Part shown: one piece after another, positions 4,470 to 32,615 of the stretch
Position numbering within the stretch: the stretch's first letter is position 1
How the letters are laid out: each line of letters begins with the position of its first letter
Virus record (IMG/VR): IMGVR_UViG_3300025663_000002
Coordinates: 13,979 to 77,978 of that record
Length of the DNA stretch: 64,000 bases
Source: a virus
Lineage: Duplodnaviria; Caudoviricetes
Direction: 5' to 3' (one strand)
The notes under the pieces: model-generated
The model's database searches: none
What the model saw: the letters and a program-made list of their open reading frames with translations, nothing else
What the model was told of the DNA's origin: nothing
Made by a program: the position numbers and the translations under genes

Positions 4470-4874
4470 ATGAAACCGTTACGCAGAGAAGTCAATAGAA
4501 GATACAAAGACATTGATTTGGATATGATGGTACACCCTCATACCGACGATATCGTAGGACGTTATGACGACGAAGCGTTGACTGGGTCGATCCTTAATAT
4601 CATTAAAACTAGAAAGGGTGAACGTGTGTTTAATCCAGATTTTGGTTCAAATGTATATAATTCTTTGTTTGAACCAATGACTTCTACTACAAGGATAACC
4701 CTTGAGGCACAGATTGAAAATGCATTACATCAACACGAACCAAGGATTAATTTAAATTTTGTCAAAATAATTGGTGACGAAGAACGTAACGCATATAATG
4801 TAACAATAGGATATTCCCCAGTTAGTGGTGGTGGCATACGTGAAGTAGAATTCTTTTTAAATAGATTAAGATAA
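4470..4874 (+). CDS. gp25: Baseplate wedge subunit gp25
   Basis: YKDIDL, IKTRKGERVFNPDFGS, EPRI motifs of the gpW/gp25 family; position before gp6. Confidence 0.93.
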   Translation: MKPLRREVNRRYKDIDLDMMVHPHTDDIVGRYDDEALTGSILNIIKTRKGERVFNPDFGSNVYNSLFEPMTSTTRITLEAQIENALHQHEPRINLNFVKIIGDEERNAYNVTIGYSPVSGGGIREVEFFLNRLR

Positions 4875-4882
4875 GGTGTAAT

Positions 4883-6655
4883 ATGGCACAAAACGATAAA
4901 CAATTAAATGTTTCTGATTTAGAATTTGGTAATATTAAAAAGAACATTAAGGACTTTTTAAGAGACCAAGACACATTTACCGACTACGATTTCGAGGGTT
5001 CTGGTATGTCTGTAATGCTTGATGTAATGGCATACACCACCCACTACATGGGATTCCATGCCAATATGGCAATCAATGAGTCGTTTCTAGACACAGCAAC
5101 ACTTAGAAACTCAGTAGTCTCTCACGCAAAGACTATTGGATATACACCAAGTTCGGTTACTTCTTCCGAGGCAATCATTAAGTTGTCATTTAATACTACT
5201 GGACTTGATCCAAGTTCAATTCCCGTTGAAAAGGGAACTACGTTTACATCTACTGTAAATGGAAACGCATTACAATTCGTTGCTTTAGAAACTGTGAATA
5301 TATACCCAGATGAGTCTGGCGACTTCACTGGTGAAATTAAAGTAAATCAAGGAACATTGAAAGGTCTAGAATGGACAGTTGATGGTACAGATACTCAATC
5401 GTATTTAATTAGAGACGCCGGGTGTGACAGGTCGACTATCGCTTTGGGTATTATTGAACCACCAGCAGACTTTTCAGTTCCGTGGACTAATAATGAATTG
5501 TTGTCGGAACTAGTTCCGTTCTCTCAAGTGTGGTTTGTACAAGAAGGTTTAGACGAAGTTACTGAAATCTATTTCGGTAATGGTATATTTGGCAAAAAAC
5601 CAAAGTTAGGGCAAAAGGTTTCTGTTGTTTATTTATCAACAGACGGAGAAATTGGTAATTATACATCCACACTTAGAGACCAAGTATTTTCATTAGATGT
5701 TGCTATTGGTGGTGATTATGATTCAAACCGAGTTACTATTGAAACTGTTAATGCTTCAAATTTAGGGGACTCTGCAGAATCAACCGAATCTATTAGACAA
5801 ACAGCACCTAAGTCTTACGAAAGGCAAAACCGTGCTGTTACTGCGGAAGACTACAAAACTATTCTTTTAGAAAAATATCCTAATATTGATTCTATATCAG
5901 TTTGGGGTGGCGAAGATAACGACCCACCACAATACGGTGCTGTGTTTATCTCAATCAAACCTAAACACGGACTTGAATTATCTCCAATTACTAAGAATCA
6001 TATTAAAGATGATATTCTTTCTAAGTATAATATGTTAGCAATTACCCCTATTATTGTTACTCCAGAATACACATATATTGATATCGAGACAACAGTTAAT
6101 TACGACCCACTGACAACTTCATTATCGCTCGGTGAGATTCAGAACGAAGTTAGGTCTAGTGTTGCATCATTCTTCGAGAGTGAAATTACAGAATTTAAAG
6201 TTGACTTAAAGTTTTCTAAGATGACTAGAGTTATTGACGATGCAGAAAGTTCTATTACGAATAACACAACTACGTTGAAAATTTATAAGAAATTTTATAC
6301 ACAATCTTCTAATACTATTGGTAATTACATATTCAAATTTAATAATAAATTGAATCCAGGTTCGGTTGTGTCTTCTGTATTTGGATCTACAGTTGATGGT
6401 TCTCAGATGGCACTATTAGACGACGGACAAGGTAATGTATTGCTTTACGATATTATCGCAGAAGGGTTCATTAATACATCACAAGGAAGTATTGACTATG
6501 AAGAAGGGACTATCGAATTGATTGGATTCAGCCCCGTACTTGATAATAATACAGTGATATCGTTGTATGCGACCCCCAAGGTTAATGATATTAGTACAAT
6601 ACGTAATAATCTATTGGTACTAAATAGTACAAACGTTATTGTTAAACCCATCTAA
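4883..6655 (+). CDS. gp6: Baseplate wedge subunit gp6
   Basis: LEFGNIKKNIKDFL, FTDYDFEGSG, FLDTATLRNSVVSHAK, YFGNGIFG, QNRAVTAEDY, WGGEDNDPPQYG. Confidence 0.96.
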   Translation: MAQNDKQLNVSDLEFGNIKKNIKDFLRDQDTFTDYDFEGSGMSVMLDVMAYTTHYMGFHANMAINESFLDTATLRNSVVSHAKTIGYTPSSVTSSEAIIKLSFNTTGLDPSSIPVEKGTTFTSTVNGNALQFVALETVNIYPDESGDFTGEIKVNQGTLKGLEWTVDGTDTQSYLIRDAGCDRSTIALGIIEPPADFSVPWTNNELLSELVPFSQVWFVQEGLDEVTEIYFGNGIFGKKPKLGQKVSVVYLSTDGEIGNYTSTLRDQVFSLDVAIGGDYDSNRVTIETVNASNLGDSAESTESIRQTAPKSYERQNRAVTAEDYKTILLEKYPNIDSISVWGGEDNDPPQYGAVFISIKPKHGLELSPITKNHIKDDILSKYNMLAITPIIVTPEYTYIDIETTVNYDPLTTSLSLGEIQNEVRSSVASFFESEITEFKVDLKFSKMTRVIDDAESSITNNTTTLKIYKKFYTQSSNTIGNYIFKFNNKLNPGSVVSSVFGSTVDGSQMALLDDGQGNVLLYDIIAEGFINTSQGSIDYEEGTIELIGFSPVLDNNTVISLYATPKVNDISTIRNNLLVLNSTNVIVKPI

Positions 6656-6670
6656 TAGATAAAGGTAATT

Positions 6671-9600
6671 ATGTCTAATAAGCAATTCACTGAGTCTCCG
6701 GCTAAGTTTCTTTCTATATTTGTAGAAAGAATGGTTCCCGAATATGTTCGAGAAGACCATCCAATGTTCGTTACATTCATGCAAAAGTATTTTGAATACT
6801 TAGAACGTGAAACCGACGTTAATGGAGAACTGGGTGAATACAAACAAATATCAGACCTTATTCAAAATGTTGATATTGACCACACATTAGACCAATTCAT
6901 TCCAGAATTTGAGAAGCAATATCTCCATAATATCCCACACGAAGCAATTGGTGCTGAGGTTGAAACCACAGATAAATCATTCCTTACTAAGAACATTAAA
7001 GAGTCTTATAAAGAAAAAGGTACTAAAAGTGCTTTGGACTTTCTATTCAGACGTGAATTTGATACAGAAGCGTATGTAGCATATCCTAAAGACTTTATGT
7101 TAAAAGCATCGGGTTCTATTTGGTACGAACCTCAATGGTTAGAAGTATCAGAACCAGAAGAAGATGTAAGGAAACTCTATAATAAGAAAGTGATCGGGCA
7201 AATTTCTGGTGCAACTGCCTTTGTAGATATTGAAGAAACTGCGGTTATGCCAGAAATAGAGAAATTACTTTTGACGCAAGTCGAAGGTTCTTTTGTTCAG
7301 GGTGAAGAAATTTGGGAAGAAGTCGGAACTAGTGGACTAACTCCTAATAAATTAACAGTAGTTTCTGATGGCATTATTGCACCTGCTACTTGTTACATTA
7401 ATGGTGTTGCGTGGAGTACGACTTATGGGGCAAACGTTCCACAAACGAAAACTGCATGTGAATCTTTAAAAGAAACAGACAATACAATTAAAACAGCAGT
7501 TTGGCTGCCTAATGGTTATTGGGTCGACTCGGCAGGTTTCTTGTCTTCTGATAGAAAGATGCAGGACAACAATTACTACCAAGACTTTTCTTATGTAATT
7601 CGTTCAGACGTTCCTGTACAAGCATATAGGGACGTATTAAAGAAATTAGTACACCCCGTTGGACTTAAATTATTCGCAGAATATATGTTTGAGACAACTG
7701 TTCCTATGGGAACAAAATTACCTGAAAAATACGCTGCATATCTTATTGCGATATTCTCTTATCTTGATGTTGCGGTTGATATTTACCCTAACGGTAAGTG
7801 TTCTGATTATCAAATTACAGATGAGATGACATGTAACGATAGTGGAGCAACTTGGACTAGAGGACAAAGTTACCGTACCACTCACCGTAAAACATACGAA
7901 TGGACTAGACCAGAAACGTTTGAGTTACAAGAAGATATTACTATTCCTTGGAACCATATGCGTTCGGACGGAACTACCCGTGAAGATATAGTAAACGGAG
8001 TTCCTCAAGGAAGCGGTCAAGACGAAGTAATATTATCTGGAACGATAATCAATACAACTTTACCTAAAGGTGAAGAACGTTACAGAACAAAAGTTTGGAA
8101 ATGTTCTGAACCAACAGGTAACTACTCTTATGGAAGCGAATCCGAACTACTAGTCGCCAGCACTAATTGTTTTGCGGCTGGAGGAGAGTGGTCACAGCAT
8201 ATTACTGGTTCTAATTATTCGGATATGACCGATGAGTGGATTTTCGTTGATAATCAATGGAAACCCGAGAGCATATACACCAAGAAAGAAACTCAAATTG
8301 GAGAAGAACATGAAGGGTTTGAGAAATTCTTAGACCAAGGTTTTGAAGATTATGTATTAGAGATTCTAAAGAAAACTGAAGTAAAATCTGAAATTTTAGA
8401 ACCATTAGATTGGAATCATCCTACAGACCATCTACTTCTTGACGTTACAACAGAACCTAATGTAATCGGTACTCGACTTCATAGTAAGTTATATCAAGTA
8501 TTCACAATGAATGAAAACATTAAGTTAGGACTTGATGCTTTCCCTGAAAAATTGATATTGGCATATTATCAGCAAATTAAAATTCTAGACACTGAAGTCC
8601 AAGGCGCCTTAGATAATACATTAAATATACGCAGAACCTTTAAAGGAATAAAAGAATATCAAACAACTAATTCTGTATGTTCAGATCCAACAATAACATC
8701 ATACACAGAATGTGTTGATGGAGGAACTTGTTCGGATTCAAATTACAACAACGACGAATATTCTTGTTTAAATGTTGGTTCGTGTTCCAGTGCTGCTGAT
8801 GGGTTATTTACCGAACTATTATGTAAAGGTTCTGGGTTTATATGGACACCACAATCGCCAGAAAACGTTTGGACATCTTCTGGTAATACTTGGACGCACG
8901 AGAATGTAGATTGGTTAGGAACTTATAACGAAGAATTCAAAGCAACAGACGGTCGTATGATTGGTTGTGAAGTTTGGGAATTATTGGTTGCTAAAGGTCT
9001 TGAATCTATCCTTGAATATAACTTAAGAATAGTTCAAGTAGAGTCGTATGCTCCTCAACAAAATTACCGTTTCTGGGAACAGAATAGAGAAAATACAATA
9101 ATTCAATCTATTTACGGTAACACGAATGATATTATCGATGCTGTGCATATTGAAGCGTTTGATGTCGACGGAGGAATACGTACACATATGCACGGGGAGG
9201 TAGATGGATTTGCCCCTATGGTCGACACCGTATTAACTAAAGGTGTAGATTTACCTCAAATGGCAGTCGGTGCTTCTGCGTTCCATACTCATTCGTTTGA
9301 TGGAACAGAATTAAAGAATTTATTAGTACACGGAAAGTCAATAGACGCTAGTGGAATTTCATACCAACAAACACGCGATCTATTAAACCGTGAGGCATTT
9401 GAAATACCAGATTTCCACGGCGCTAACTTAGTTTGTGGTGGTATTATGACTCCTCCTCTATGGGGCGATTGGGTTGATTCAGTTCAAGATCCTCGTTATA
9501 ACGGTGTTGGAGAATGTTTCAATTCTATTTACGAAAATGAGACAGATTGTGTAGGTTTCTACGGTGATCCTATGTTCTGGATGAGTCCTTCGTGTTCCGA

Positions 9601-12600
9601 CCAAGCAAGTGCTGATGAAGCAACGTGTCATAATGTTGGTCATTCTTGGGGATACTTTACATTAGCAGAACTTCCTCCTATGAAAGGACACGTTTCATAT
9701 TTCGTTAAAGGAGAAGTAGTAGATAGACAACGTGGACGTACTGCAGACCCTCTTACTAGAGAACAAGCAAGACAACTAATTGATGGTGATATTGCTTCTG
9801 TAACACTTTACGATAACGTCGGAGCTTTAGATAAAGAAGGAAACCCTACATACGACGAAAATGATATTACTATTGGTGGAACAATTACAAATATTCGTGG
9901 AGAAATTACTAGTGGTCACTATCACGAATATGCTGTAACATATGATGCAGATTGGAAAACTAAACAAGATTGGCGAGGCAACAATTTAACGCACGGGTTC
10001 GTTTACACACCAGTAACTACGTTCTTGTGTTTTAACTATAAACCAGATTTACCTGTTGACGAGACAATCATGGGTGGTATGGATTTCACTGGTCAACCAT
10101 GGCCACAAAATGTATTCATGGATGTTCCAGATTCATACGTTGGAGGATTCTTAAATAATCCAGATATCACATTACAACACAATCAAGTATGGGCTGAAGA
10201 TTTAAACCCTAATGTAGATTGGGTTGAAATATATTCATCTAACTTTATTCAAGATGTTCCTGGTTCGGGTACGATTGACGACTTGATTGGTGCAGAACAA
10301 GTTGGGGTTAATACTGATATTGCTACAATCAAAGCATATCCAAGAATGAATGAAGATTACATCGCATTGATAGACCAATCAGGTTTCATTTATTTACAGA
10401 AGGTGTCTGGTGAATGTTCAGATAATGCTTGGGGTAATAAACAAGATTGTTTAGACCTAGCAGGTATTTGTTCCAATACAACATTTAATAACAATCAAAT
10501 TTTATGTGAAAGTTCTGGTACTTGTTCAGACATCACATTTACTGACGAAACTCTTTGTTTGGTTGATGGTACTTGTTCAGACGGACTACTTCTTACGCAA
10601 TCTACGTGTGAAAGTGCGGGCACTTGTTCAGATGTTTCATATACAGCAGAAAATATATGCACTTCGTCTGGTGAAACTTGGACTCCCGCGGGTAACGTTT
10701 GGTCCACAATAAATAGTTGGAGTTTAGAGACTTGGACTCCTGCAACAAACACGTGGACAGTTCCTGATACAGCACCTTTATTGTTCATGGACTTGACTTC
10801 ATTACAACATGTTATTGGATTAGGTCCGTTTGGGAATTACGACGAACGTGGTGTACTAGGTTTAGCATTCCATCCAGATTATGTCAATAATGGTAAATTC
10901 TACGTTTACTATATGACAGAGCAAGGTGGAGGTACTGGATCGTTTGGATATCCGTTATCTACATCTGTTATTTCTGAATTCACTGCTACTTTTGGTGGTA
11001 ATTGGGACGTTGCTGATGTCACTTCAGAAAGAATTCTACTAGAAATCCCTCAACCAGATATGAACCACAACGGTGGTGAGTTAGAATTCGGTCCAGATGG
11101 ATACTTATACATCGGTTTAGGTGATGGTGGTAATGCTGGCGACACATCAACAACAACAGGTCATGGAGGTCATGGTGATTACGGTAATGCTCAGAATCCA
11201 ACAAACCTATTAGGCAACATTTTAAGAATTGATGTAACGGAAGATACTGTTAATAGTATGCCGTACACAATTCCTGCGGATAACCCATTCATTAATTCAA
11301 TTTATAAAGAAGGTCAGGCAGAAGCACAACCATTCAGACCAGAAATATATGCATACGGATTTAGAAATCCGTGGAGATTTTCTTTCGATACAGACGATAG
11401 ATTGTGGTGTGCAGACGTAGGACAGAACAAATTTGAAGAGGTAAACATTGTTGAAAAGGGTGGCAACTATGGTTGGAGAGTAATGGAATCATATCATTAC
11501 TACGAAGAACAGCAGTCTGTAATCGACCAAATGGCAATTGACTTAGGGTACACCACTACATTAGAGTATTTAAGCGATTTGAAGAAACCTATCCATGAAT
11601 ATTCTCACGGAACTGGTATTTCTGTCTTAGGTGGGTTTGTTTATCGTGGCACAGAAGTTCCAGAATTGACAGGTAAGTATATATTTGGAGATTGGGGTAA
11701 AACTTGGGAAGGCACTAGTGGACAACTATTTGCTTTAGAAGAAACCGTAGCAGGACTTGCTGCGAACTTTAATGTGTTGCCAAATGCAGTTAATGGGGCG
11801 ACGCACAGTCATACATTAACATTAACCACAGCAGAAGTTGACTTCTTACAAGCAAACCCAGGAAGTCCAGTAGTAACAATACAAACAGATTCAGTGCATG
11901 CCGAGTTTTATGTTCATACGTTTACGGTGACGTATAGTTCTGCTGATGGATTGTTCCATATCATTGGACAAACAAACCCAGAAGGTCATGACTTATTAGA
12001 GTTCGATGGTTGGTCTGACGATGTTGGATATAATAGAAGGTCTTTATCTTTCTGGGATCCTGTTACGGAAATTGTAACATTAACCACATTCGACGAATCT
12101 CTTTTAACTATGGGCGAAGATACACAAGGTGAGATTTATTTCTCAACTAGAGTTGGTATTGGCACATTCAGACCGCCTGGTATTGGACCGAATAATACTA
12201 AAATCTTTAAGATTACAGACTCTTATAGTTCAGTTGACGTTCCAAACGCTCCAGCTCAAATTCCAGTAACACAAAAAGCTCATACACATGGATATAAAGT
12301 AACATACAACTTCACCGAACAAATGTTTGAGGTTGTTGAAATTTCTGATATTGAAATGTCAACGTGGGACGCATTTTGGCCAATATGGGAGATTAATGAT
12401 CCAGCTTCGCACGTCCATCCAGTTATTACTGCATGGTCCCATGCAGTTGATGTTGAAATACCATTAGGTTCTTCTGCTGGTTGGCACTTCGACGAGGTTA
12501 CTCAAGAATGGGGACCATACGATATTGGTGCTGATACTGCTTGGGCGCCTCCTTCTGTTGATACTGGTGGTTATGTTACAATTGACGTTGCACCAAACCT

Positions 12601-14818
12601 TGCGGTGTCAATGGCAAATGAATATGGAGTTGAAGGACATTTCCATTACTTCGACGATGTTATTTTAGATTCTTTCGGTACTAATTATGGCAGACGATCT
12701 AACTCATTAAGTCGGGTTGGTGCAGAAATTCTCGCAAACCAAGAAGAAGGTTCTGTTCATACTTTATATTCTTCAATCGTAGACGACGGAACTCGACGAC
12801 ATTATCATGGTTATGATATTACATATTCTTCTGCACAACGTACATTTGTATTAGAAGAAACTGCTGAGTGGGAAGAGGGTGTACGTGATACTGGTGCGTA
12901 TATATTAGTTGGAACTCAAACCCACGAACATCCAACTTCAGTTGACGGACTACTAACGTCTGTTGGTTGGAACGGTGACCCATCATTTGAAGCACCATCG
13001 GCTGTCATCGGTCAGGCAAATGACTGGGACAATCTTAATGGGTCTTTAATTCCTCATCAACATTACTTTAATGATACTGGGTTAGACCAAGTTGGACCTA
13101 ATTCTGACAGAACTGCAGTTTATTTATCAAACACGCAAACAACCGACTTAATTTCGGGTGCTATTGAGAATGTTACATTATATTCTTCAATTTACCAAAA
13201 CCATTACCATGAGTACAATGTAACGTTCGACTCATTAAATGGTTCTTTAGTTATACAAGAAGTAGAACAGTGGGTATCTGCTGACAATCAACAATACTTT
13301 ATTAGAACTCCTGCTGATCACAGGCATCCAGTTTCCGTAGATGGTGTTCCTAGTGGAACTGGATATAATCAGATGATATCTATAAATAGTTTGCCTATAT
13401 TTGATTCTCCAGGTTTCCCTTATCCTGGTGGATCACATCCTCACTTCTTCAACGGCACAGTTGTTGGTCCATTCTCGGACGGCACTATTGAATATTCTGT
13501 TGGGTTAAGTGTTGATCAATCGTATAAGTTGATTGATGGTATAATTAATCAAGTTACACTTTATGACTCTATTTCTGGTGGACATTTTCACTCGTATGTT
13601 GTTAAGTGGGACGATTTGAATAATATATTCTATTGTACAAGTTCAGTTACATACGTTCGTGGTGGAATTGAAGACGCAACACAAGATACTGGTAAATATT
13701 ACCTATCGCAAATTCTAGGACCATCTGAAGGGTTGCATTGGCACAACTTAACGATTGACTGGAATCCAAATAATGAGGCAGTAGCACAGCAAAGTGGTGG
13801 TTCTATTTACCAAACAAACATAGCAAGTTCATACGAAACGTTAGTCAATCCTCCTTCAGTTGAAGTTAATGTTAATACAACAGCATTATCTCCTGTATCT
13901 ACAAGTTACCCAGATACACCGAGTGTTGGTGACAACACAACCATTATAACGTACAGTGATTTGACAACTACGACAACGACGACAACGACTATCACAAACG
14001 TAACAGAAACTATTACAACTAATATTTCAGACGGAACAAGTTCTTCTACAGTATTACCTCCAGTAGTTTCAACGGATGTAGATGTTGTGCAATCAACTCT
14101 GACGATTGAAAATGAACTCAAACGTAAGACATTTGTTAATAATATACTACAAGTTAATAATGCACCAACTATATGGATTGGCAATACATTTATTGACGGT
14201 GAAGGTTCTCATGATCATTTACTATACCAAGGTTGTTCTTTAGATACACAAGGACCGTTCTCGGGTAGAATGTGTGAACCAATTACCTTGGCAACTGCTA
14301 ACTTATTAATTAATGCGCAAGACCCTACTTTTGGAACAATTTTTTATGATTCTCCCAACGGCAACTTGTCGCATTATCATAGTTACTCGTTGAAGTTTAA
14401 CCCTTTCTTAGGTGACGACGGAACGTTCCTTGCTTTACCAATTAGTCAGTTTGATAGATTCCCTGGATCGGGTACGAACGTTCATAAGTTTATGTTAAGT
14501 GGTGGTTTCCACACCCATACATATTTCTTAACTGAGGCAGAATATGCTACGTTAGTTGGAGGAGGTTTGGTTCAAACCTCCCAAGCAGACGCTATTCACG
14601 CAGAACTATATACGCACACTTTAGTAATTAGACTTGTAAATTTCCAATATCAAATTGTATCTCAGTCGTCGGACTTTGATAACCACGATACCGTAATATA
14701 TCAAGGCATGGTTGCTGAGGGTGGACAATGGATTCAAAATCAACAAGGTTCTGGACTAGGTGACCATATTCATTCTACTACGATAGACGAATCGAATATA
14801 TGGCCTGTTCCAGCATAG
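6671..14818 (+). CDS. gp7: Baseplate wedge initiator gp7-like N-terminus fused to a very large accessory region (Cys/Trp modules, GSDH-type beta-propeller, HxH repeats); 2715 aa
   Basis: gp7 motifs VPEYVREDHPMFVTFMQKYFEYL, YKEKGTKSALDFLFR, QDNNYYQDFSYVIRS, LVHPVGLKLF in the first ~340 aa; synteny gp6-gp7-gp8. Confidence 0.88.
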   Translation: MSNKQFTESPAKFLSIFVERMVPEYVREDHPMFVTFMQKYFEYLERETDVNGELGEYKQISDLIQNVDIDHTLDQFIPEFEKQYLHNIPHEAIGAEVETTDKSFLTKNIKESYKEKGTKSALDFLFRREFDTEAYVAYPKDFMLKASGSIWYEPQWLEVSEPEEDVRKLYNKKVIGQISGATAFVDIEETAVMPEIEKLLLTQVEGSFVQGEEIWEEVGTSGLTPNKLTVVSDGIIAPATCYINGVAWSTTYGANVPQTKTACESLKETDNTIKTAVWLPNGYWVDSAGFLSSDRKMQDNNYYQDFSYVIRSDVPVQAYRDVLKKLVHPVGLKLFAEYMFETTVPMGTKLPEKYAAYLIAIFSYLDVAVDIYPNGKCSDYQITDEMTCNDSGATWTRGQSYRTTHRKTYEWTRPETFELQEDITIPWNHMRSDGTTREDIVNGVPQGSGQDEVILSGTIINTTLPKGEERYRTKVWKCSEPTGNYSYGSESELLVASTNCFAAGGEWSQHITGSNYSDMTDEWIFVDNQWKPESIYTKKETQIGEEHEGFEKFLDQGFEDYVLEILKKTEVKSEILEPLDWNHPTDHLLLDVTTEPNVIGTRLHSKLYQVFTMNENIKLGLDAFPEKLILAYYQQIKILDTEVQGALDNTLNIRRTFKGIKEYQTTNSVCSDPTITSYTECVDGGTCSDSNYNNDEYSCLNVGSCSSAADGLFTELLCKGSGFIWTPQSPENVWTSSGNTWTHENVDWLGTYNEEFKATDGRMIGCEVWELLVAKGLESILEYNLRIVQVESYAPQQNYRFWEQNRENTIIQSIYGNTNDIIDAVHIEAFDVDGGIRTHMHGEVDGFAPMVDTVLTKGVDLPQMAVGASAFHTHSFDGTELKNLLVHGKSIDASGISYQQTRDLLNREAFEIPDFHGANLVCGGIMTPPLWGDWVDSVQDPRYNGVGECFNSIYENETDCVGFYGDPMFWMSPSCSDQASADEATCHNVGHSWGYFTLAELPPMKGHVSYFVKGEVVDRQRGRTADPLTREQARQLIDGDIASVTLYDNVGALDKEGNPTYDENDITIGGTITNIRGEITSGHYHEYAVTYDADWKTKQDWRGNNLTHGFVYTPVTTFLCFNYKPDLPVDETIMGGMDFTGQPWPQNVFMDVPDSYVGGFLNNPDITLQHNQVWAEDLNPNVDWVEIYSSNFIQDVPGSGTIDDLIGAEQVGVNTDIATIKAYPRMNEDYIALIDQSGFIYLQKVSGECSDNAWGNKQDCLDLAGICSNTTFNNNQILCESSGTCSDITFTDETLCLVDGTCSDGLLLTQSTCESAGTCSDVSYTAENICTSSGETWTPAGNVWSTINSWSLETWTPATNTWTVPDTAPLLFMDLTSLQHVIGLGPFGNYDERGVLGLAFHPDYVNNGKFYVYYMTEQGGGTGSFGYPLSTSVISEFTATFGGNWDVADVTSERILLEIPQPDMNHNGGELEFGPDGYLYIGLGDGGNAGDTSTTTGHGGHGDYGNAQNPTNLLGNILRIDVTEDTVNSMPYTIPADNPFINSIYKEGQAEAQPFRPEIYAYGFRNPWRFSFDTDDRLWCADVGQNKFEEVNIVEKGGNYGWRVMESYHYYEEQQSVIDQMAIDLGYTTTLEYLSDLKKPIHEYSHGTGISVLGGFVYRGTEVPELTGKYIFGDWGKTWEGTSGQLFALEETVAGLAANFNVLPNAVNGATHSHTLTLTTAEVDFLQANPGSPVVTIQTDSVHAEFYVHTFTVTYSSADGLFHIIGQTNPEGHDLLEFDGWSDDVGYNRRSLSFWDPVTEIVTLTTFDESLLTMGEDTQGEIYFSTRVGIGTFRPPGIGPNNTKIFKITDSYSSVDVPNAPAQIPVTQKAHTHGYKVTYNFTEQMFEVVEISDIEMSTWDAFWPIWEINDPASHVHPVITAWSHAVDVEIPLGSSAGWHFDEVTQEWGPYDIGADTAWAPPSVDTGGYVTIDVAPNLAVSMANEYGVEGHFHYFDDVILDSFGTNYGRRSNSLSRVGAEILANQEEGSVHTLYSSIVDDGTRRHYHGYDITYSSAQRTFVLEETAEWEEGVRDTGAYILVGTQTHEHPTSVDGLLTSVGWNGDPSFEAPSAVIGQANDWDNLNGSLIPHQHYFNDTGLDQVGPNSDRTAVYLSNTQTTDLISGAIENVTLYSSIYQNHYHEYNVTFDSLNGSLVIQEVEQWVSADNQQYFIRTPADHRHPVSVDGVPSGTGYNQMISINSLPIFDSPGFPYPGGSHPHFFNGTVVGPFSDGTIEYSVGLSVDQSYKLIDGIINQVTLYDSISGGHFHSYVVKWDDLNNIFYCTSSVTYVRGGIEDATQDTGKYYLSQILGPSEGLHWHNLTIDWNPNNEAVAQQSGGSIYQTNIASSYETLVNPPSVEVNVNTTALSPVSTSYPDTPSVGDNTTIITYSDLTTTTTTTTTITNVTETITTNISDGTSSSTVLPPVVSTDVDVVQSTLTIENELKRKTFVNNILQVNNAPTIWIGNTFIDGEGSHDHLLYQGCSLDTQGPFSGRMCEPITLATANLLINAQDPTFGTIFYDSPNGNLSHYHSYSLKFNPFLGDDGTFLALPISQFDRFPGSGTNVHKFMLSGGFHTHTYFLTEAEYATLVGGGLVQTSQADAIHAELYTHTLVIRLVNFQYQIVSQSSDFDNHDTVIYQGMVAEGGQWIQNQQGSGLGDHIHSTTIDESNIWPVPA

Positions 14819-14889: not shown

Positions 14890-15978
14890 ATGGGTGCAAT
14901 TGTAACCAGTAAATTTAGAACTCAGAACTTGATGGTTTTCATCGACCAGTTTAAAACCACTGGTGTTGCGGCTGATGATAACTTCTTGTACTTAGGATTC
15001 GGACGTTCGGAAGCATGGTCGGACGACGTGAACGGAAACGACGAATCAAACGGTAACTTTATCTTACCAGACCCTCTTGACGAGGACGAGGCAAGATATT
15101 GGGCAGATATCGTTGGAGCAAAACGTATTCAGGACGATGATATTTCTCCTGTACTTCCTCGTATTGACTGGGACAACGGTGACCCGTATGCATTTGACGG
15201 TTCTGAAGGTGTAACAGGTATTCCTGACGCAGGTCGTTCATTTATCTCTATTGTTGGTTCTCATTCTATTGCAATGAATACAGAATACCGAGTGTATGAA
15301 TGTGTGAAAGAGCCTGGTGGAGCATATTGTGACAACTACACAAGCAATAGTGCAACTGATTGTGCTGCAGCTGGTGCGACTTGGACTGCAGAAACAAGTG
15401 GTTTTGGTAAATGTTACATTGGTGGTTCTTATTCAGCAATTCAAACAGATAGAACAACTTGTGAATCAACTACTGGTGGACTTTGGTTACCAAACGCTGC
15501 TTCTAATAGTCCTACTGGTGCGACTGGTGACACTCAACAAACCGTTGCTCAAGTAATTGACACATTAGATGGTTATGTATGGAAATACCTATACAAATTA
15601 GAACTAAACGACATTATTAACTCAACTACTAACGACTGGATGCCTGTAATTTATGGTGACGCGGTTCTTGCTGGTTCTGAGCAAGCAGTGTTTGGTGATT
15701 CTAATGCGATCTTCTCTGCTAAGTGTCATCATGGATTGATTCACGTTCGCCTTGAAACTAGTGACGGTTTCCCTGATAACGATGACTTCCGTCAAATTGG
15801 TTTACTACGTAATCCAGAGTTAGACGGTGGTGGTTCTAAAGCGCAGTCTTCTGTGTATTCTGATGCTACTTTATCTTTAGAAGAAAATACTGGACAGTTG
15901 ATTTATTTGGAAAACAGACGTGCGATTACTCGTGCCCCTGACCAAATTGAGGACCTGAAACTTGTAGTAGAATTCTAA
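14890..15978 (+). CDS. gp8: Baseplate wedge subunit gp8 with a Cys/Trp-module insertion
   Basis: MGAIVTSKFR, YLGFGRSEAW, YRVYEC, DGYVWKYLY, DDFRQIGLLRNP, GQLIYLENRRAITRAPDQIEDLKLVVEF. Confidence 0.93.
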   Translation: MGAIVTSKFRTQNLMVFIDQFKTTGVAADDNFLYLGFGRSEAWSDDVNGNDESNGNFILPDPLDEDEARYWADIVGAKRIQDDDISPVLPRIDWDNGDPYAFDGSEGVTGIPDAGRSFISIVGSHSIAMNTEYRVYECVKEPGGAYCDNYTSNSATDCAAAGATWTAETSGFGKCYIGGSYSAIQTDRTTCESTTGGLWLPNAASNSPTGATGDTQQTVAQVIDTLDGYVWKYLYKLELNDIINSTTNDWMPVIYGDAVLAGSEQAVFGDSNAIFSAKCHHGLIHVRLETSDGFPDNDDFRQIGLLRNPELDGGGSKAQSSVYSDATLSLEENTGQLIYLENRRAITRAPDQIEDLKLVVEF

Positions 15979-22023: not shown

Positions 22024-25000
22024 ATGTCACATTATACAAACTCATCGTTTACATTAGACGAATTATTAAAAATCGACCAACAGAAGGAAGACTTTTTAGA
22101 TTCTTTGACCATTAAACTTTCAGACCCAGCATTGGGAATTAAAGACTTAGCATTGATGCTGAAATCTTTGGAGATTATGGATAATATGGAGCATTTAAAC
22201 GCTTACCGTCAATTCATTATCAACCTTGCTAATAAGTCTGCTGACTTTACCACTCCTAACGAACTAGTAAACAACGGTGACATTTCTATTGAATATATTA
22301 CAAGCAATATTGTACAAAACCCTAATTTTGATTCTGACGCATTAGAAGTTGAAATCGCCAAATCTTCAAACTTCGAAGTAGGAACTGACATTGCAATGCC
22401 TTGGGCAAACGGAACTACGTATAAATTCGATACATTAATTGCAGAAGGAACTAATATTATCTCAGGAATTTCTGACGGTAATGGCGCGACAGCAGTTTGG
22501 TTTAATTCTACACTAAAACCTAATACACAATACAAATTATCATATGATTTAGTTATTAATGATGTTGGTTGGGACTTACCTAACGGTGCTAAGAACATGG
22601 TGGACGTTCTTTCTGAAGATGAAATGGTATTCTCGGAAAGTGGTGGTGGACCAGACCCAATAACATATGTTGTATCTGTAGTTGAAGATGCAAATATGAT
22701 ATTACCTACTTGTGATGGAGTCATTGTACCATTCGACACCTCAATCCCGGATTATAACAACGCGTTTCCTGCTATGGAACTCGCTTGTACTGGTTCTGGT
22801 GGAGTTTGGGTAGAAGGTAACATTAACGACCCACTTACACAAAATCACGACATTATTCCATACAACGTAGTTGCTCGTGAAGGTGATACATTAATCTTTA
22901 CAAACCCTTCGACAAACTACTTATTACACAATGCAGTATCCGACGACAACATCTCATTTACTTCTCCTGATATGCCGCCTGGATCTAATTGGTCTTGGGT
23001 TGTTGACGGATACCATGATATTTACTTCCATTGTACTTTCCATCCATTAGAAGAAGGAAGGTTACTTACTAAAACTGACCATAGATACGTTTACAATATC
23101 GACCACGGGTTGAATAAAGGTGATACAGTTAGAATGCCTATCAACTATGGTACTATGGAAGAACTACCTTCTTTATCAAATTCATACTTCATTAGTTTGC
23201 AAATGGACAACCCATGTACCTCAATTGGTGGTGTTGGTAGTCAAACGAACATAGAATCGTTATACCACAACTTATCTATTGGTGACGTTGTTTCATTCCA
23301 ATCTGGACCAGAAAACGTCACAGATACATCAAGTTCGGTTGATGTAACATTTTCGGGAGGAAACGCCACACTTGAGGCACAGGCGTCGGTTGTTATTCAA
23401 AATGGTATTGTAACATCAATTGCGTTAGAAGATAACGGAACTTGTTCAAACACAATATACTCAGACGAAGCAACTTGTGTTGCCAACTCAGAAACTTGGA
23501 CACCACAATTAGCGGTAGGTGCTGGATATGAATCTGCTCCATTATTATTTATCGCCGGTGGTGGCGGTTCTGGAGCTACTGCAATAGCAACATACGACGG
23601 TCGTGTAGTTTCTACTATCAATATAAACTACGGTGGTGGTGGTTATACATCACAACCTACTGTACAATTTACAGGTGGTGACCCAACTACTCCTGCAACA
23701 GCAACTGCCAATTATGACGCAGCCACTGGGCAAATTAACAGCATTACTATTACGGACTCTGGTGTTGGATACCAAACAACCCCAACCATTACTATTGTTG
23801 GTGGTAATCCAACCACAGCAGCTCTGTTTGAATGTTCTATATCTGGTTCTATATCTGCGGTTACATTAACAGCAGGTGGTTCTGGTTATGGTTCAGACGG
23901 TTCGGTGATTTTTGGAGAAAAGGCATGGGAAACGTTTGAAATTTCTGCTGTTGTAAAAGGACAAGAACAAGTTGACATTTTCCTAGACGACGTGAACCAA
24001 ATGGGACATATTCATACAGTCACTATGACTACTGCACAGTTTGATAATGTTAAGTTAGGAAATAACGAAGTTATAGCAACGAACGCAGATAATACAGGAC
24101 ACTCTCACGATTGTACATTTACTTGGGACTTAACTCTAAACGGAGGACTTGGCGGAATTTGGTTAGTCGGAATGACTGGCAACCACACGCACGGATTAGA
24201 TGTATATAACGAAGTATCTGGTGGTACTAAAATTGAATTAGTAAACTTCGGTCATTATCATGAAATTCTGATCACCGAAGCAGAAGAAGCAACACTAAAG
24301 GCAGGTTTGCTAATTGTGACTGGTGATAACCCAGACGGAACTACTGCGCATGACGGAACTGGTGTTGTTATGACTAAAACGTCAGACTTTGGTACTTCAG
24401 ATCCTCAGCATTTCCATACAGTTGAATTTGGTTGCGTTGATGCAGTAAATGATGTTTACGCAATTACTGTAATTGATCAACACATCCATGACTTTGGTCG
24501 TGTTTGGTATCCTGGATCGTTTAGTTTCTCAATATCACAATGGAACGACGGTTCTTCTAGTGCTGGAAGTAACCCAGCCTTTATTGAACTGCCTTTTGCG
24601 GATATTCCTGGTTATGTTAAGAAAGAAAAGGGTATATATTCTATAAATCACGGGTTGGTTCAAGGTCAACGAATACATTTCCAGAACATTTTTAATGGAA
24701 TTCATCATGGTAATACAAACTATTGGGTAGAATCTGTAATAGACGCAGATAATGTTTCTGTTACAGAAACAATTATTTATCCTCTTGCAGGTGCTCCAGG
24801 AACTACTCCTACTATTCATAATGTTATTGAAGAGTACACGGTTGTTGCAGACTTAGCATCGTACAGATTCCAAGTTGAAAGAGATATTACAAACCACATT
24901 GGTTCTGCTTACGTAGAAGGTGTGCAGATTGAATGGTCTAGACCTAACACAATTGAATCAAACTTACACGGATTAGTTGTTGGTGATGTTGTACAGTTGC

Positions 25001-28000
25001 CTTCTGGTCCTCAACCTTACACTCCATCAGAACTTCCTGGTGCTATGCGTGACCATACAGTTATTGCTATTGGTGATGGTTATGGTCCTACTGAACATAT
25101 GGAAATTATTGTTGATACGCAAACTACTATTACGTTTGCTGATCCAAACCTTTCTGTTGTTGAAGGTGCTCAGAACTCTCCGTGGTATTGGTCTTGGTGG
25201 GACAGAACCGCTGCATCATATGCTCCGTATCAAAGAGATGAAGCAGTTTACCAAAGTTTTGGTGACGTAACACTATACGACAGTATTACTGGTGAAAAGG
25301 CTGGTTTTGAATTATTCCGTGGTGGTACATACAAATTTACAAATAATGCATGGAACCCTTCTGGACATATTACACAGATTGACCCTTCAACGGGCAATTT
25401 AGTTCCTATGTACATGCACGCTGCTGGTATTAAAGCAATTCCAGGTGCAGGTTGGGACAACCTAGTACAAGCAGGTATGACACATAGTGCATGCCAAGAT
25501 GGTGTATCAGGCCTCGACCATTATCATTGTGTATCAATGAGAGCGAACCACGGTCTAACTATCGTTTCTGGTGACCATAACCCGTTTGTTAATACTACCG
25601 AAGAGCCTGGCACGTGGGTTGGTCCCGAACCTTTCCCAGTTTGTATGGGACTTGGTGGTTGGTGTGAAGAACTAGACGTTGACGGTTGGTACTATAATGG
25701 TATTGACGATGAGTCTGTGTGTTCTGCACTTAACCCAACGGGCGATGTTGGTTTGGCACAATGGAGAGGTCCACAATTTATTGGTAACTTCTCTAAAGAA
25801 TTTACATGGACAGTTCCTGAAGACTTTGGTCTTACTGGTGCTGACGGTGTTACTGGACTTGGTCCGTTTGTTGCTCCAGGTGAGTTAAACTTAGCATACC
25901 ACGTTGAATCATACCAAGGACTATATAAATTTGATAAGTCTGGTATGATTGAAGGAACAAACCCTATTATTAACATATACCGTGGTGGAGTTTACAGATT
26001 TAGACTTAATGCTCCTGGTCACCCTTTCTACATCACAACCGACAACGGATCTAACTTTACTCCTGGTTCATACTTCGGTGAGTACACTAACGGTGTTGTT
26101 GGTTCTCGAGCTGTTACTGGTTACGGACCAAACGAAGGTGTTACTGGTCAATTTGGTGACGACGACGTTGAAGTATTAGAATTTACAGTTCCTATGGACG
26201 CACCCGATACGTTATATTATCAATGTGAGTTCCATTCATCTATGATTGGTACGTTAAATGTTATAGATTTACCTATTGTTGATGCAGGTGATGAAATTGT
26301 AGTTTACTACCATCACGGACAAGATAACATGTGGACTCCATTATGGATTAAGGACAAGATTGTTGTAGACAACGGTTCTGGTCCAAACTTCTTCCAAGTA
26401 CAACCTATTCCTGAGAATTCGTTCCCAGTGAAGGGAACTCAGGCGGATGTTACTGGATTAGGTAACTTGATTACTGGTTATGGTGCAGGAGCAATCCCTA
26501 AAGCACAGGCAATGGATATTGAATTCGGTTCACTTTCATACTTAGACCCAGTCGCCTTGACCGCCGGAATTGGTCAAGAGACATTCTTAACCACAACTGG
26601 ACTTGTTGGTACTAGTAAATTCTATATCTCATTAGATGATACAGAACGTTCTAATATTGAAATGACTAATGTGTTGTTACAAGAAGCACCTTGGTCGGAA
26701 AATGGTTCTTTCGAAATTAGTGCAGGTCAGGCATTTACTACTGACGCGGTTGTTGGTGGTAATATTGAACAAATCGTAACAGGTTCTGTCATTGACGGTG
26801 ACCAATATGAAGTTGGTTATGAAATCATTGAAGGTTTTGTTGATCAATTTGGTGGTAATTCTGGTACTGTTCAACTGTCGTTAATTGGTGACACTACGGT
26901 TACTGGTAACTTTAACACAGACGCAGGAATGTACTCTGAAACGTTAATTGCTCCAGTTAATACTACACATATGAAACTTACTGCAAGTGGTGCTGGTAAA
27001 GTAGATAACGTTTCACTGAAGCAACGTGTATCAGGACAAAATGCTTGGTATCTTGGTGATGGTTGGACTGTTAATACTGATGGTCAAGCGTATTGCGACG
27101 GTTCTGTTCAAGGACGTACTGAAATCAATCAGACTGTTAATATCCAAGAAGGTAAATTGTATGAAGTTAAATATACTTTAGCAAATACTGACCCAGAAGG
27201 TGATGGTTCTCAAGGACGTTTACAATTAGCATTGGGTACTAACCCATACAACTTAATTTCTAATTGGAATTTTGATGCTAGTGGTATTAACATCAATTGG
27301 AATTCACCAGGAAGTGCATACACAATAGATAGTGCAAATGCTAGGTTGAATTTTGAAAACTCAAATGCCGACGGAATTACTTACACTTTCACTGATAACT
27401 TAAATAACATAGTTGATTATGAAATTACTATGGAAGTGTTATCAGTAACAGGTACGGTTCATAATTTCCAAGTTGGACCTGGACCTCAGGCAAACCATTA
27501 TCATACTATCGATTTGCAACAGTCGCAGTATGACTTTATGATTGCCAACGAAGGTTCTTCTCTTACATTGCAACAGTCTGATACTACTCACGCTGCTTAT
27601 TATACGCATACGTTCTCTCTTGCGTTTGATAGCACAGTAGAAACTTGTACTATGCAATTGGGTTACTCGCAAGATAATATGTGTTTCCTTAATGACGGTA
27701 CTCCAGATCCATCAAATACGACATCTACGGATTGTTTATCTGCTGGAAATACTTGGATTCCAACACAACCTAACTACGACTATTCTTGTTCGTTTGTTGA
27801 TTTTGATAACCTACAAAACGGTATTACTAATCAATTAACAATGACAGAATTGACGCAAGACGGTGGTGCCGGATTACCTGCTTCTGATGTTCATAATATT
27901 GTTCTTGGATTTGCTAATGGAGTTCTAACGGTAATATCAGACGAAAATGATATTGCATATGACGAAATTACATTACTTACAGCAGATTCTGGTATTATTA

Positions 28001-29141: not shown

Positions 29142-32100
29142 ATGTCTATTACATTGGATACAATTACCCATGCGGTCAACTCGTTTAACGACATTCCAGA
29201 CGTTACGTTCAACTCTATTGACATTGGCGAGTTTGCTAACGACGTAGAAATTTATACTAATACCCCTGCGGTAATGATTCCTTCTAAATTGAATGCTATG
29301 GCAGGTTCAATGAAGACTTGGTTGAATACCAATATTGCAGCACCATTAGAAGCACAACAAAATACCTTTAAAACGGAAGTAGTTGTACGTACTAATGAGG
29401 CAATGACTGCTGTTGAAACTTATATCAATAACGAAGTAAAATCTTTTGTTAATGATATTTTTGTTCCGTGGGCAAACAACTCTGGTGTATTACTTGCTGA
29501 TAATGCTAATACATTAGAAGGAAACGTTACTACTACATTAGGTCAATTAACAACAGACTATACTATCCACGTAGCAGCCCAAGACGCTATTATCGCTCAA
29601 GCACTTCAAAGTTTTGAAGATAACCTTGCTCAATACACTGGTGATTCTGGTGCTGGTTACTCTATTCATCAAACAAATCAGTTAATTGCTGACCAAACGA
29701 TGACCAAAGATATTTCTTTAGATAACTATAAGTTTGACGAAAACGGAAATGTTACATATTTCAGAGAAGGTGATTTTGAAACTCATCATATCGTATATAA
29801 CGCAGAAGAACAAATTATTTCTTACGGCGAAACTTTATCTATTTCTGGTGAAGCAAGACCTTTTGTAAATCATCAAATCCTAGGGTATGATGAAAGTGGA
29901 CTTAAAACTTCGATTGAGCAAGTTAAATCATACAACTTCTTCATCAACACAGACGCATCTAATATCAAATCTTTTCGTGCTACGGGTAATGAGAAAAACG
30001 GTGATGCAGCTTTGGACTTAACTATCCTTAATAACACTTCTGTTGCAGACACGGACAACCCCTCAATTTTATTAACAAGAGGCACGCCGGTTATTATGAC
30101 ATTCGAAGGAATTATTGCTGGAGATTTTGTTTCTATAGAAGACGGTTCTGGTAACGTTTATGATGATGGTGTTAGTGGACAATATGCCATGGATTCTGAC
30201 ACTATTACATTCAAACCATATAAGTCGTACTGTCATGACGGTGTTTCTGGTGCTACGGGTTGGGGTGTTGTTTCAAACATGGGTGCTTCTGAAATTGATG
30301 GTGATAATTCAGGCGCTTTCCAAGACCCAGACTTATGTGAAAAATACTTCACACCAAATGTTTCTATTTTGGACGACTTTACACGTGAATATGAGTTTGT
30401 AACTGCAGGGGAAACTTATGACAGTGCACTTTCTGATGGTTTAATTTATAAAGTATTCATCTCCGACGACTCAGGTTTCTCTGATACATATTCATACACA
30501 ATTGACCACAACAGTAAGTTAGGTACTGGTGCTATTGTGAACGCAGTATATGACGACGGTTGTTCTGATATCACAATTACAAATGGTGGTAACGGTTTCT
30601 CAAACGGAACTATTGCTCGTATATTTGATCAAGATTCAGTTGCCACTCCGGCAGTATGTGCTATCACTACTGGTGATGGTTCTATTGGTTCGGTCAATAT
30701 CATAAATGGTGGTGCAGGGTACAACGGTTTCTGGAGAATTAATTTACCTGATATCGGAGGATTAGGTGCTCATACACACATTATTGAAGTTTCTCAAGCA
30801 GAAGTGAATCAAATTAAAGCAGGTTCACCTATTACAAAAACAACACTAGACGCAGGGCATACTCATGATGTTACAATGTCATGGAACTCATTTGTAGAAG
30901 AATTTAATTTTGATGTATATGATGTTGTTGCGGGCCATGAACATGGACCGATCTCTTCTTCTAATGAAATTAACCCTGATATTCAATTACAGTTTATCGG
31001 TGATGGCACAAACGCCGCTGGTTATATTGTATTAGACGAGTCAGGAACGGTTGTTGATGTTATTATTACTAATTCTGGTATTGGATACACTAATATAACG
31101 GTTCAAACTTTAGGTGGTGCAGCCACAACGGATGCTACATTAAGTGGAAACTTAGTAAATGGTGCGGTTGTTTCTATTAACGTAAATACTCCAGGAGCAG
31201 GTTATACTGACTCTACTGCGGCAACAATCAATGTAGGAATTACATCAAGTTTATTTAACCCTTCTGAATTTACAGCTAAAGTGGGTGATACAATCCACTT
31301 CACTAATAATGATGCTGCAGCTCATACAGTAGAAAACGTTGAAGGTGCCTTTGCTTCTCCTTCGTTACCACAATCTGCTACTTGGGATTATGTTATTACT
31401 AAAGACACAGATATTACTGATATTTACAACCTAACGGGTTCTGGTATCGCACAAGACGGTAGAATGTATGTACGTGAAAATACTACATTCATTGATATCG
31501 TTTCAAATACTGGTGGTGGTTTACGTGCTAAAGGTACTATTAACGCTGCAGGCACATTGACTAACGTTGCTATTATAGAAAAAGGTTTTGGTTATACAAA
31601 TGCAGATTCGGTAAGAGTTATTGACGTATCAGGTACTGGTGAAGGTGCTTACGCTACTGCAAATATAGACCGTAAAGTGATTGATATTACTATTGATAAT
31701 GGTGGTGCTGGTTATGATGCAAATACTAGAATTCTTGTAGTTGACCCTTCAGGTAGAGACGTAAATGGAACTAAAGTATTTGGTTCTGGTGCTGTTATAA
31801 CCCCTACTATTGACGCAAGTGGTACTATTACTGCTATTACGGTTAATAATCAAGGTTCTGGATACACAGACGTAGACTTCATTGTTCATGATGCTTCTGG
31901 GTTGGGTGCTGGTTTAGTATTAACTCCAAGTGTAGATTCATATGTAGAAAGTATTACTATGACCGCTCGTGGTGCTGGTTACACAAACCCTATTTGTATT
32001 GTTTCTGATTCAGTAGGAACATATGGTAATGGAAATGATGCAGGTAATTCTACTCAAAATAACGTTGCTGGTAACTTATTCACATCTACTGCTATCCTTA

Positions 32101-32615
32101 ACGACGGAATCGGTTCGATTGTTGTTGTTGATGGTTGGAAAGATTATGTTGCAGGAACTCAACGTGTTACTATTGTTGATATTGATCCAAACCCTACTGG
32201 GTTTGGTGCTACTGCTACTGCTTCGTTGAATGCGGGTGGTGCGGTTTCTGGTATTACAATCACAAATTCTGGTACTTCATACAAACAACCACAAGTTACA
32301 GTTGACGGTGAGGTTCTATATTTTGGTGCTGTAATTAATGCAGTAAATACCAACATTGCATTATTCGGACCAGAAGGTAATACTAACGCAAGTCCATTCG
32401 CAGCTAATGGAGTATCTGATACTAACTTTAAGAACGGTGTTATGATTCAGTTTGGTAATGATGGTGGTCACTCAATTAACGACTCATGGACGTTTAAGTT
32501 ACAGACATGGAAGAAAGGTACACCAGGAACACTAACATATAAGACATACCAATATGATGGTAGTTTAATTAACACACAGGGCACAATATCTTTAAGAGAT
32601 ATTTGGGAAGCTTAA
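29142..32615 (+). CDS. Virion structural/fibre protein (1157 aa) with Gly-rich I-x-x-G-x-GY repeats, one HxH triplet and a degenerate cupredoxin-like segment
   Basis: Late promoter and AGGAG SD; repeated ITNGGNGF/IINGGAGY/ITNSGIGY/VNNQGSGY motifs typical of T4-like structural proteins. Confidence 0.85.
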   Translation: MSITLDTITHAVNSFNDIPDVTFNSIDIGEFANDVEIYTNTPAVMIPSKLNAMAGSMKTWLNTNIAAPLEAQQNTFKTEVVVRTNEAMTAVETYINNEVKSFVNDIFVPWANNSGVLLADNANTLEGNVTTTLGQLTTDYTIHVAAQDAIIAQALQSFEDNLAQYTGDSGAGYSIHQTNQLIADQTMTKDISLDNYKFDENGNVTYFREGDFETHHIVYNAEEQIISYGETLSISGEARPFVNHQILGYDESGLKTSIEQVKSYNFFINTDASNIKSFRATGNEKNGDAALDLTILNNTSVADTDNPSILLTRGTPVIMTFEGIIAGDFVSIEDGSGNVYDDGVSGQYAMDSDTITFKPYKSYCHDGVSGATGWGVVSNMGASEIDGDNSGAFQDPDLCEKYFTPNVSILDDFTREYEFVTAGETYDSALSDGLIYKVFISDDSGFSDTYSYTIDHNSKLGTGAIVNAVYDDGCSDITITNGGNGFSNGTIARIFDQDSVATPAVCAITTGDGSIGSVNIINGGAGYNGFWRINLPDIGGLGAHTHIIEVSQAEVNQIKAGSPITKTTLDAGHTHDVTMSWNSFVEEFNFDVYDVVAGHEHGPISSSNEINPDIQLQFIGDGTNAAGYIVLDESGTVVDVIITNSGIGYTNITVQTLGGAATTDATLSGNLVNGAVVSINVNTPGAGYTDSTAATINVGITSSLFNPSEFTAKVGDTIHFTNNDAAAHTVENVEGAFASPSLPQSATWDYVITKDTDITDIYNLTGSGIAQDGRMYVRENTTFIDIVSNTGGGLRAKGTINAAGTLTNVAIIEKGFGYTNADSVRVIDVSGTGEGAYATANIDRKVIDITIDNGGAGYDANTRILVVDPSGRDVNGTKVFGSGAVITPTIDASGTITAITVNNQGSGYTDVDFIVHDASGLGAGLVLTPSVDSYVESITMTARGAGYTNPICIVSDSVGTYGNGNDAGNSTQNNVAGNLFTSTAILNDGIGSIVVVDGWKDYVAGTQRVTIVDIDPNPTGFGATATASLNAGGAVSGITITNSGTSYKQPQVTVDGEVLYFGAVINAVNTNIALFGPEGNTNASPFAANGVSDTNFKNGVMIQFGNDGGHSINDSWTFKLQTWKKGTPGTLTYKTYQYDGSLINTQGTISLRDIWEA

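Follow-up and report, generated by a model that had tools for sequence, protein, structure and literature searches.

The gp7 locus

The window analyzed here is a stretch of 64,000 nucleotides (nt) that forms part of a 77,978-base IMG/VR virus record (IMGVR_UViG_3300025663_000002, positions 13,979 to 77,978). It contains a T4-type baseplate module, in which one uninterrupted open reading frame (ORF) of 2715 amino acids (aa) encodes a gp7-like baseplate wedge protein, hereafter gp7, with repeated His-x-His (HxH) motifs. These motifs, the units in which they are arranged and the metal sites that they may form are the subject of this work. The genes of the module and the large proteins encoded in the same region are as follows:

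1074-2129, hub protein, gp5-like, T4-type baseplate module
4470-4874, gp25, T4-type baseplate module
4883-6655, gp6, T4-type baseplate module
6671..14818, + strand, gp7-like baseplate wedge protein, 2715 aa, uninterrupted ORF
14890-15978, gp8, T4-type baseplate module
16046-21592, 22024-29031 and 29142-32615, included in the three very large structural/fiber proteins found in the same region as the baseplate module

The original prediction regarded gp7 as a baseplate protein present in six copies. The first ~350 aa of the ORF matched PHROG 17744 (E 1e-51), PHROG 2885 and, just above its cut-off, Pfam PF23786 (E 6e-7, 29.6 bits for a cut-off of 27). The ORF also lies between gp6 and gp8, giving the gene order gp25-gp6-gp7-gp8 of a baseplate module. 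The name gp7 is thus justified by N-terminal homology together with gene order, and the baseplate identity stands, while the placement of six copies is by analogy with T4. T4 gp7 was absent from the matches obtained by searching PDB sequences with phmmer and with the family profile, the distance being large. This large gp7 ORF is from a T4-like phage of an uncultured marine lineage, its nearest relative in culture being Pelagibacter phage HTVC008M (38.6% identity in gp6).

HxH motifs are arranged in repeated units

About 19 HxH motifs had been announced for gp7 between positions 9185 and 14773, and the count turned out to be exact. The protein, which has 78 His, contains exactly 19 HxH motifs extending over nt 9185-14773, located at aa 839, 872, 1083, 1712, 1871, 1914, 1990, 2044, 2085, 2129, 2178, 2217, 2256, 2305, 2356, 2514, 2568, 2614 and 2699. 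Only 2.2 motifs are expected from the His content of gp7; in 20,000 shuffles the count averaged 2.2 and never exceeded 11. HH pairs were absent, and His spacings other than i/i+2 were rare. The HxH observation in gp7 is real and highly non-random.

Twelve of the 19 motifs fall into four triplets, one per unit of ~110 aa (units A to D, hereafter type-1 units), which have in common the pattern HxH-(F/Y)...L(S/T)...TLY(S/D)S...HYHxY.V...HxH, with 39-54 aa between motifs. A shared repeat pattern of this kind was part of the original prediction, and pairwise BLAST confirmed that the units are true repeats (E 1e-13 to 1e-18 among A, B and C, and 2e-4 to 0.02 for D), the paralogous units diverging to 24-37% identity. 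Three of the predicted triplets (HFH/HYH/HEH, HQH/HYH/HRH and HPH/HFH/HWH) were right, but the fourth unit ends in HTH 2614 and not in HIH 2699, since both spacing and alignment assign HTH 2614 as the third motif of unit D. A second pattern, HxH-T..LT.AE...HAE.Y.HT...HD, was found in two copies in gp7 (aa 1706-1785 and 2608-2686) and defines the type-2 modules. The layout of gp7 is given below, all features being on the + strand:

6704..7735, +, N-terminal gp7-type wedge domain, aa ~12-355 (PHROG 17744, PHROG 2885, Pfam PF23786)
9185..9331, +, early His stretch of no unit type, aa 839-887 (HMH 839, HTH 872, H887; His in 27-30 of 30 orthologues)
9680..10000, +, partial type-1 unit I, aa ~1004-1110 (H1007, ..TLYDN.., a long insert, HYH 1083, H1108)
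10841..11689, +, glucose/sorbosone dehydrogenase (GSDH)-type beta-propeller, aa 1391-1673 (Pfam PF07995, E 7e-32; PDB profile matches to HHIP and sGDH)
11786..12025, +, type-2 His module F, aa 1706-1785 (HSH 1712, H1743, H1749, H1773; all five His invariant in 32/32)
12182..12436, +, partial type-1 unit G, aa ~1838-1922 (HTH 1871, HVH 1914; first motif absent)
12620..12955, +, type-1 triple-HxH unit A, aa 1984-2095 (HFH 1990, HYH 2044, HEH 2085; unit hidden Markov model (HMM), E 2e-31)
13052..13351, +, type-1 triple-HxH unit B, aa 2128-2227 (HQH 2129, HYH 2178, HRH 2217; modeled alone)
13421..13771, +, type-1 triple-HxH unit C, aa 2251-2367 (HPH 2256, HFH 2305, HWH 2356)
13868..14170, +, Thr-rich, His-free linker between units C and D, aa ~2400-2500 (runs of T)
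14195..14542, +, type-1 unit D, aa 2509-2624 (HDH 2514, HYH 2568, HTH 2614)
14492..14773, +, type-2 module E and terminal HIH, aa 2608-2701 (HTH 2614, H2643, H2649, H2672, HIH 2699)

The assignment of unit I was supported by BLAST matches to units B and C (E 5e-5 to 1.5e-4), by a partial HMM match at aa 1019-1051 and by the orthologue consensus, and its H1007 is an HxH in most orthologues. HTH 2614 appears to serve both unit D, as its third motif, and module E, as its first. The two module types look alike by eye, with the same order of an HxH, an L(S/T)..(A)(E/Q) helix and H.(Y/F).V(T). Homology, although suggested by this likeness, reached an hhalign probability of just 6.6%, and they were treated as two module types of similar grammar.

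An invariant Cys pair (YQGC...RMCEP) is unique to unit D, where it is located in the loop after the first HxH (14195-14330, aa ~2509-2553). This pair may form a disulfide standing in for part of the loop packing of units A to C. Elsewhere in gp7, Cys-rich blocks with up to 6 Cys per 100 aa occur in the N-terminal half (aa ~600-1360, positions ~8470-10750), whereas the His-rich C-terminal half is nearly Cys-free. This split between Cys and His along the gp7 arm suggests two different stabilizing principles. The embedded GSDH-type propeller, of the pyrroloquinoline quinone type, lies outside the His repeats and is kept in all orthologues.

The HxH His residues are nearly all invariant among orthologues

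A word-index search retrieved 30 further clusters of gp7 orthologues, full-length or fragmentary and all metagenomic. The 31 clusters range from 1736 to 3217 aa and are 47-56% identical in the His region, which is contained in at least 35 IMG/VR contigs; some of the contigs that bear orthologues reach 146-153 kb. From aa 1712 on, each His of the 16 HxH motifs was present in 32 of 32 aligned sequences, and the additional His of the type-2 modules (1743, 1749, 1773, 2643, 2649 and 2672) were likewise invariant in this alignment. For the three earlier HxH motifs, the His was found in every sequence covering the position, except H841 (27/30). Between aa 1700 and 2715, 38 of the 43 His (88%) were invariant in the 32 sequences, compared to 22% of all residues; His was the most conserved residue type in this region, followed by Cys, Trp and Gly.

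A similar picture emerged from 124 distinct copies of the type-1 unit. Positions conserved in at least 95% of these copies were six His, one Leu, one Ser and one Phe, so that the invariant polar residues are six His and one Ser only. The module layout, namely four full units, one to four partial matches to the unit profile and two type-2 modules, was identical in all full-length orthologues. The His units are, on these alignments, old and individually conserved paralogues and not a fast-evolving repeat.

Relatives of the type-1 unit were sought in several collections. No family of Pfam (E <= 10) or NCBIfam (E <= 1) was found over units A to D or modules E and F, and the PHROG matches in gp7 were confined to the N-terminus, with none over the His units. 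Searches of all PDB sequences with phmmer and with profiles returned no relative of the unit, the matches of the whole-family profile in the PDB being limited to GSDH/HHIP propellers. When the four-unit profile was run exhaustively with HMMER against 1.84 billion representative proteins, five were returned, all of them gp7 orthologues or fragments. Megablast and tblastn of the His region against 50,697 phage records gave nothing, and an ESM Atlas look-up of unit B gave no usable match. As far as sequence comparison goes, the type-1 domain has no described counterpart and occurs only in a single clade of marine phages.

One unit is predicted as a compact monomeric domain

Structures were predicted by AlphaFold2 with a 33-sequence alignment. 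The model of aa 1975-2715 (741 aa) had a mean predicted local distance difference test score (pLDDT) of 82.9 and a predicted template modeling score (pTM) of 0.42, which indicates well-defined domains whose mutual arrangement is undefined, like beads on a string. The Thr-rich linker between units C and D was predicted as long beta-hairpins, with a pLDDT of 65-85. Fold matches of the whole 741-aa model were discarded as meaningless, since they were global propellers only, with a TM score of 0.06.

Unit B alone (aa 2100-2240) was predicted as a compact monomeric domain with a pTM of 0.77 and a pLDDT of 81.4. The pLDDT was about 85-95 between the first HxH and just past the third, and low outside. 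Because confidence is high only across that span, the three HxH delimit, and belong to, one compact domain. The model consists of one helix (L-S/T..Q..L), a short strand (TLYSS), a long hairpin starting at HYH, and short strands. In searches for related folds, the best matches of the unit model had an E value of 0.14 with Foldseek in the PDB, an E value of 0.17 in BFVD and a Z score of 3.6 with VIA-align (48,161 chains). Cupin, alpha-carbonic anhydrase, cupredoxin/multicopper oxidase and Cu,Zn-superoxide dismutase folds were not among the VIA-align matches listed, which were weak throughout. A weak fold match alone is no proof of a new fold. An origin of the unit by gene triplication was also considered but found no support, as hhalign of its three sub-segments aligned just 7-19 columns around the motif. 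When unit B was co-folded as three copies together with three Fe, the score was 0.00, which weighs neither for nor against trimerization.

With an i/i+2 spacing, both imidazoles of an HxH lie on the same side of a strand, an arrangement familiar from metal sites. From periodicity, we infer that both His of the central motif, H-Y-H-x-Y-x-V/I-x-F/Y, would share a face with conserved hydrophobic residues and would thus point into the core. No variant lacks the central motif, while a reduction or loss of the first or the third is seen in unit G, in the type-2 modules and in a fiber module at aa 1819-1875 described below. Since the central motif is always kept, a central strand flanked by two other segments fits these observations.

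Related modules in fiber proteins and other features of the region

The type-2 module, or a compact triple-HxH version of it (~60-90 aa), was also found in four copies in two neighboring fiber proteins:

23986..24504, +, two compact triple-HxH modules, fiber ORF 22024-29031 (aa 655-732, HIH/HSH/HTH; aa 738-827, HYH/HFH/HIH)
27478..27648, +, type-2 module, fiber ORF 22024-29031 (aa 1819-1875, HYH, HAAYYTH; BLAST of module F, E 2e-11)
30753..30971, +, compact triple-HxH module, ORF 29142-32615 (aa 538-610, HTH/HTH/HEH; BLAST of module F, E 8e-4)

The two adjacent compact modules at 23986..24504 were matched by BLAST of module F of gp7 (E 8e-7) and by the type-2 HMM (E 5e-29 and 6e-26, both copies having been in the model). 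A word-index search with the type-2 profile returned nothing beyond gp7 and the fiber orthologues of the same clade.

The same fiber proteins contain cupredoxin-like type-1 copper motifs, at 22876-23058 and 25981-26253 in ORF 22024-29031 (aa ~285-345 and ~1320-1410) and at 31212-31352 in ORF 29142-32615 (aa 691-737). One fiber motif, ...H...FHCTFHPLEE, has a Glu at the place expected for the axial Met, and another, ...GHPFYIT...YYQCEFHSSM, has the complete His/Cys/His/Met set. ORF 29142-32615 also gave weak matches, below the cut-off, to the Pfam families Copper-bind and Cupredoxin_1, and its orthologues are named "plastocyanin" by the Joint Genome Institute (JGI).

Three other proteins of the region were noted. 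The gp5-like hub protein (1074-2129) has 351 aa only and matched hub-plus-lysozyme profiles toward both their N- and C-termini, with the middle left unmatched; its lysozyme domain may be missing. The 1848-aa protein encoded after gp8 (16046-21592) contains DUF4815 (Pfam E 1e-65) and, unlike its neighbors, has zero HxH. In the structural region, a 506-aa ORF (37469-38989) matched a PHROG annotated as tryptophan halogenase (E 1e-99).

A putative intradomain metal site in the His units

HxH motifs in known phage proteins bind Fe or Zn (PMC12407873, PMC12609058, PMC11705849). For the His units of gp7, we favor a putative metal site that is structural, buried and contained within each domain, and we give this reading a probability of about 0.58. 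A single-chain metal site is plausible, and it is the best available reading and a partly supported one. The C-terminal ~1000 aa of gp7 would then be a string of small, independently folding domains (four full, two partial, and two shorter relatives), in each of which four to six invariant His, with three HxH pairs from the same chain, would form one or more internal metal sites. These candidate sites would staple the fold as HxH-bound Fe or Zn does in trimeric fibers and spikes, but within one polypeptide. A monomeric gp7 arm, also bearing the sugar-dehydrogenase-type propeller, would project from each of the six wedges and probably serve in host adhesion. T4 gp7 is present as one chain per wedge and, by analogy, no trimer axis is expected in this gp7. 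What we infer for the His units thus comprises metal binding, convergence, the number of ions per unit, the identity of the metal and the number of copies per virion.

Several points weigh against this reading. Conserved variants have only four His (unit G and the fiber module at aa 1819-1875) or five (the type-2 modules). The apparent sharing of HxH 2614 by unit D and module E is hard to reconcile with two separate closed sites, and the predicted structure draws on just 33 sequences. Moreover, all solved phage HxH sites lie on trimer axes, the single-chain version having no solved precedent.

A stricter version, which corresponds to the original prediction and is a subset of the favored reading, would have each full unit hold exactly one ion (Fe2+, Ni2+ or Zn2+), coordinated octahedrally by all six His; the unit would then mimic, with a single chain, the trimer-axis site of gp37 or gp12. 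It would account well for the presence of exactly three invariant HxH in each of units A to D, for an invariant polar set of six His and one Ser, and for domain boundaries that coincide with the first and third motifs. However, the conserved four- and five-His variants mean that strict six-His octahedral coordination is not universally required, two ions with three His each are equally possible, the sequence has no internal three-fold repeat (7-19 columns in hhalign, as above), and the predicted helix and long hairpin are not pseudo-trimeric. We thus consider exactly one octahedral ion per unit to be a doubtful, if possible, case. A different arrangement, with sites between chains as in T4 gp37, would require that the C-terminus of gp7 oligomerizes, or interdigitates with the two fiber proteins, so that three chains contribute to each metal. 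Every solved phage HxH site is indeed inter-chain, on a three-fold axis, and the type-2 module is common to gp7 and both fiber proteins. This arrangement is nevertheless improbable when set against the single gp7 chain per wedge, taken by analogy from T4, the confident AlphaFold2 prediction of one unit as a compact monomer and not as an extended strand, and the motif spacing of 39-54 aa with a helix and a hairpin, unlike the Gly/Ser-rich segments of 9-37 aa in the gp37 needle.

Multicopper oxidases have a trinuclear copper cluster built from multiple HxH pairs, which, like the GSDH-type propeller in the same protein and the cupredoxin-like type-1 copper motifs in the neighboring fiber, could speak for functional metal centers. 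These would be Cu or Fe sites with redox or hydrolytic activity toward the host envelope, or exposed metals docking to host metal-uptake receptors (the "Ferrojan horse" idea). A tandem array of six to eight catalytic copies would be unusual, however; no fold or sequence match to any metalloenzyme was obtained; and the central-motif His would be turned toward the hydrophobic core, which suggests a buried site. Functional centers of this type seem even less probable than inter-chain sites, and the link of the gp7 HxH sites to the Ferrojan horse is pure speculation. Finally, the invariant His might act without metal, in a hydrogen-bond or pH-sensing network or in the binding of anionic host glycans. 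We regard this as the least probable of the alternatives, because the i/i+2 spacing is exclusive, a signature of side-by-side imidazoles on one strand face, and the invariance of six His across paralogues of 24-37% identity is typical of ligand residues.

If the intradomain, structural metal site is retained, Fe2+ and Zn2+ would be the candidates with precedents in phage tails, and the cupredoxin-like motifs of the fiber proteins could keep copper in play. Much more tentatively than for the site itself, the triple-HxH unit may be a new fold in which a single chain provides a complete His4-6 transition-metal site. With ~6-9 sites per gp7, six gp7 per baseplate and the additional fiber copies, this would amount to roughly 40-100 tightly bound metal ions per virion.

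Comparison with known systems

Known phage HxH metal staples occur only where three chains meet. A self-contained domain supplying all ligands, if true, would represent a novel structural solution, probably with a novel fold, and this compact metal-binding module could be useful to protein engineers. The metal load per virion would also be far above that of T4 fiber tips. With respect to marine biogeochemistry, the unit would provide an expressible object for testing whether marine phages constitute a reservoir of ligand-bound trace metal. As a defined recombinant protein, it could reveal which metal, and how much of it, an abundant uncultured phage lineage carries.

In T4 gp37, seven HxH are located at aa 883-998 on Gly/Ser/Thr-rich strands with a spacing of 9-37 aa. 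The seven Fe sites of its needle (PDB 2XGF) match these seven HxH, three chains each giving one HxH to a buried Fe, as is likewise the case at spike apices (PMC12609058, PMC12407873, PMC11705849). Both gp37 and gp7 are phage tail proteins with repeated HxH, presumably metal-stapled, but the gp37 site is made by three chains on the fiber axis with short strands, whereas in gp7 the three HxH of a unit fall within one helix-plus-sheet domain of ~100 aa, and the protein is expected to be a monomer. When compared by hhalign with aa 780-1026 of T4 gp37, the 124-copy unit profile reached a probability of 0.3% and the type-2 profile one of 0.6%, with the motif alone aligned, and gp37 was not listed by the sequence and profile searches of the PDB. 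On these profiles, the gp7 unit is not homologous to the gp37 needle and has only the motif in common with it.

In T4 gp12, a six-His Zn site is formed by three HxH pairs around one buried ion. The HxH apex of central spikes of the P2/phi92 type resembles the proposed gp7 site in the same way, with six His in three HxH pairs around one buried ion that stabilizes a small domain. In both the spikes and gp12, however, each chain of a trimer gives one HxH, while gp7 has three HxH per chain in each unit, several such domains, and another predicted fold. The His6 site of human calprotectin (S100A8/S100A9) is octahedral, has a very high affinity for Fe2+, Mn2+ and Ni2+ and includes an HxH pair. This is a chemical analogy only, calprotectin being a helical EF-hand heterodimer that has no sequence or fold relation to the gp7 unit.

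With T4 gp7, which has a length of 1032 aa, the likeness lies in the N-terminal ~350 aa, which match wedge families, and in the gene order gp25-gp6-gp7-gp8. The gp7 of HTVC008M has 1016 aa and zero HxH, whereas the gp7 described here has an extra ~2350 aa.

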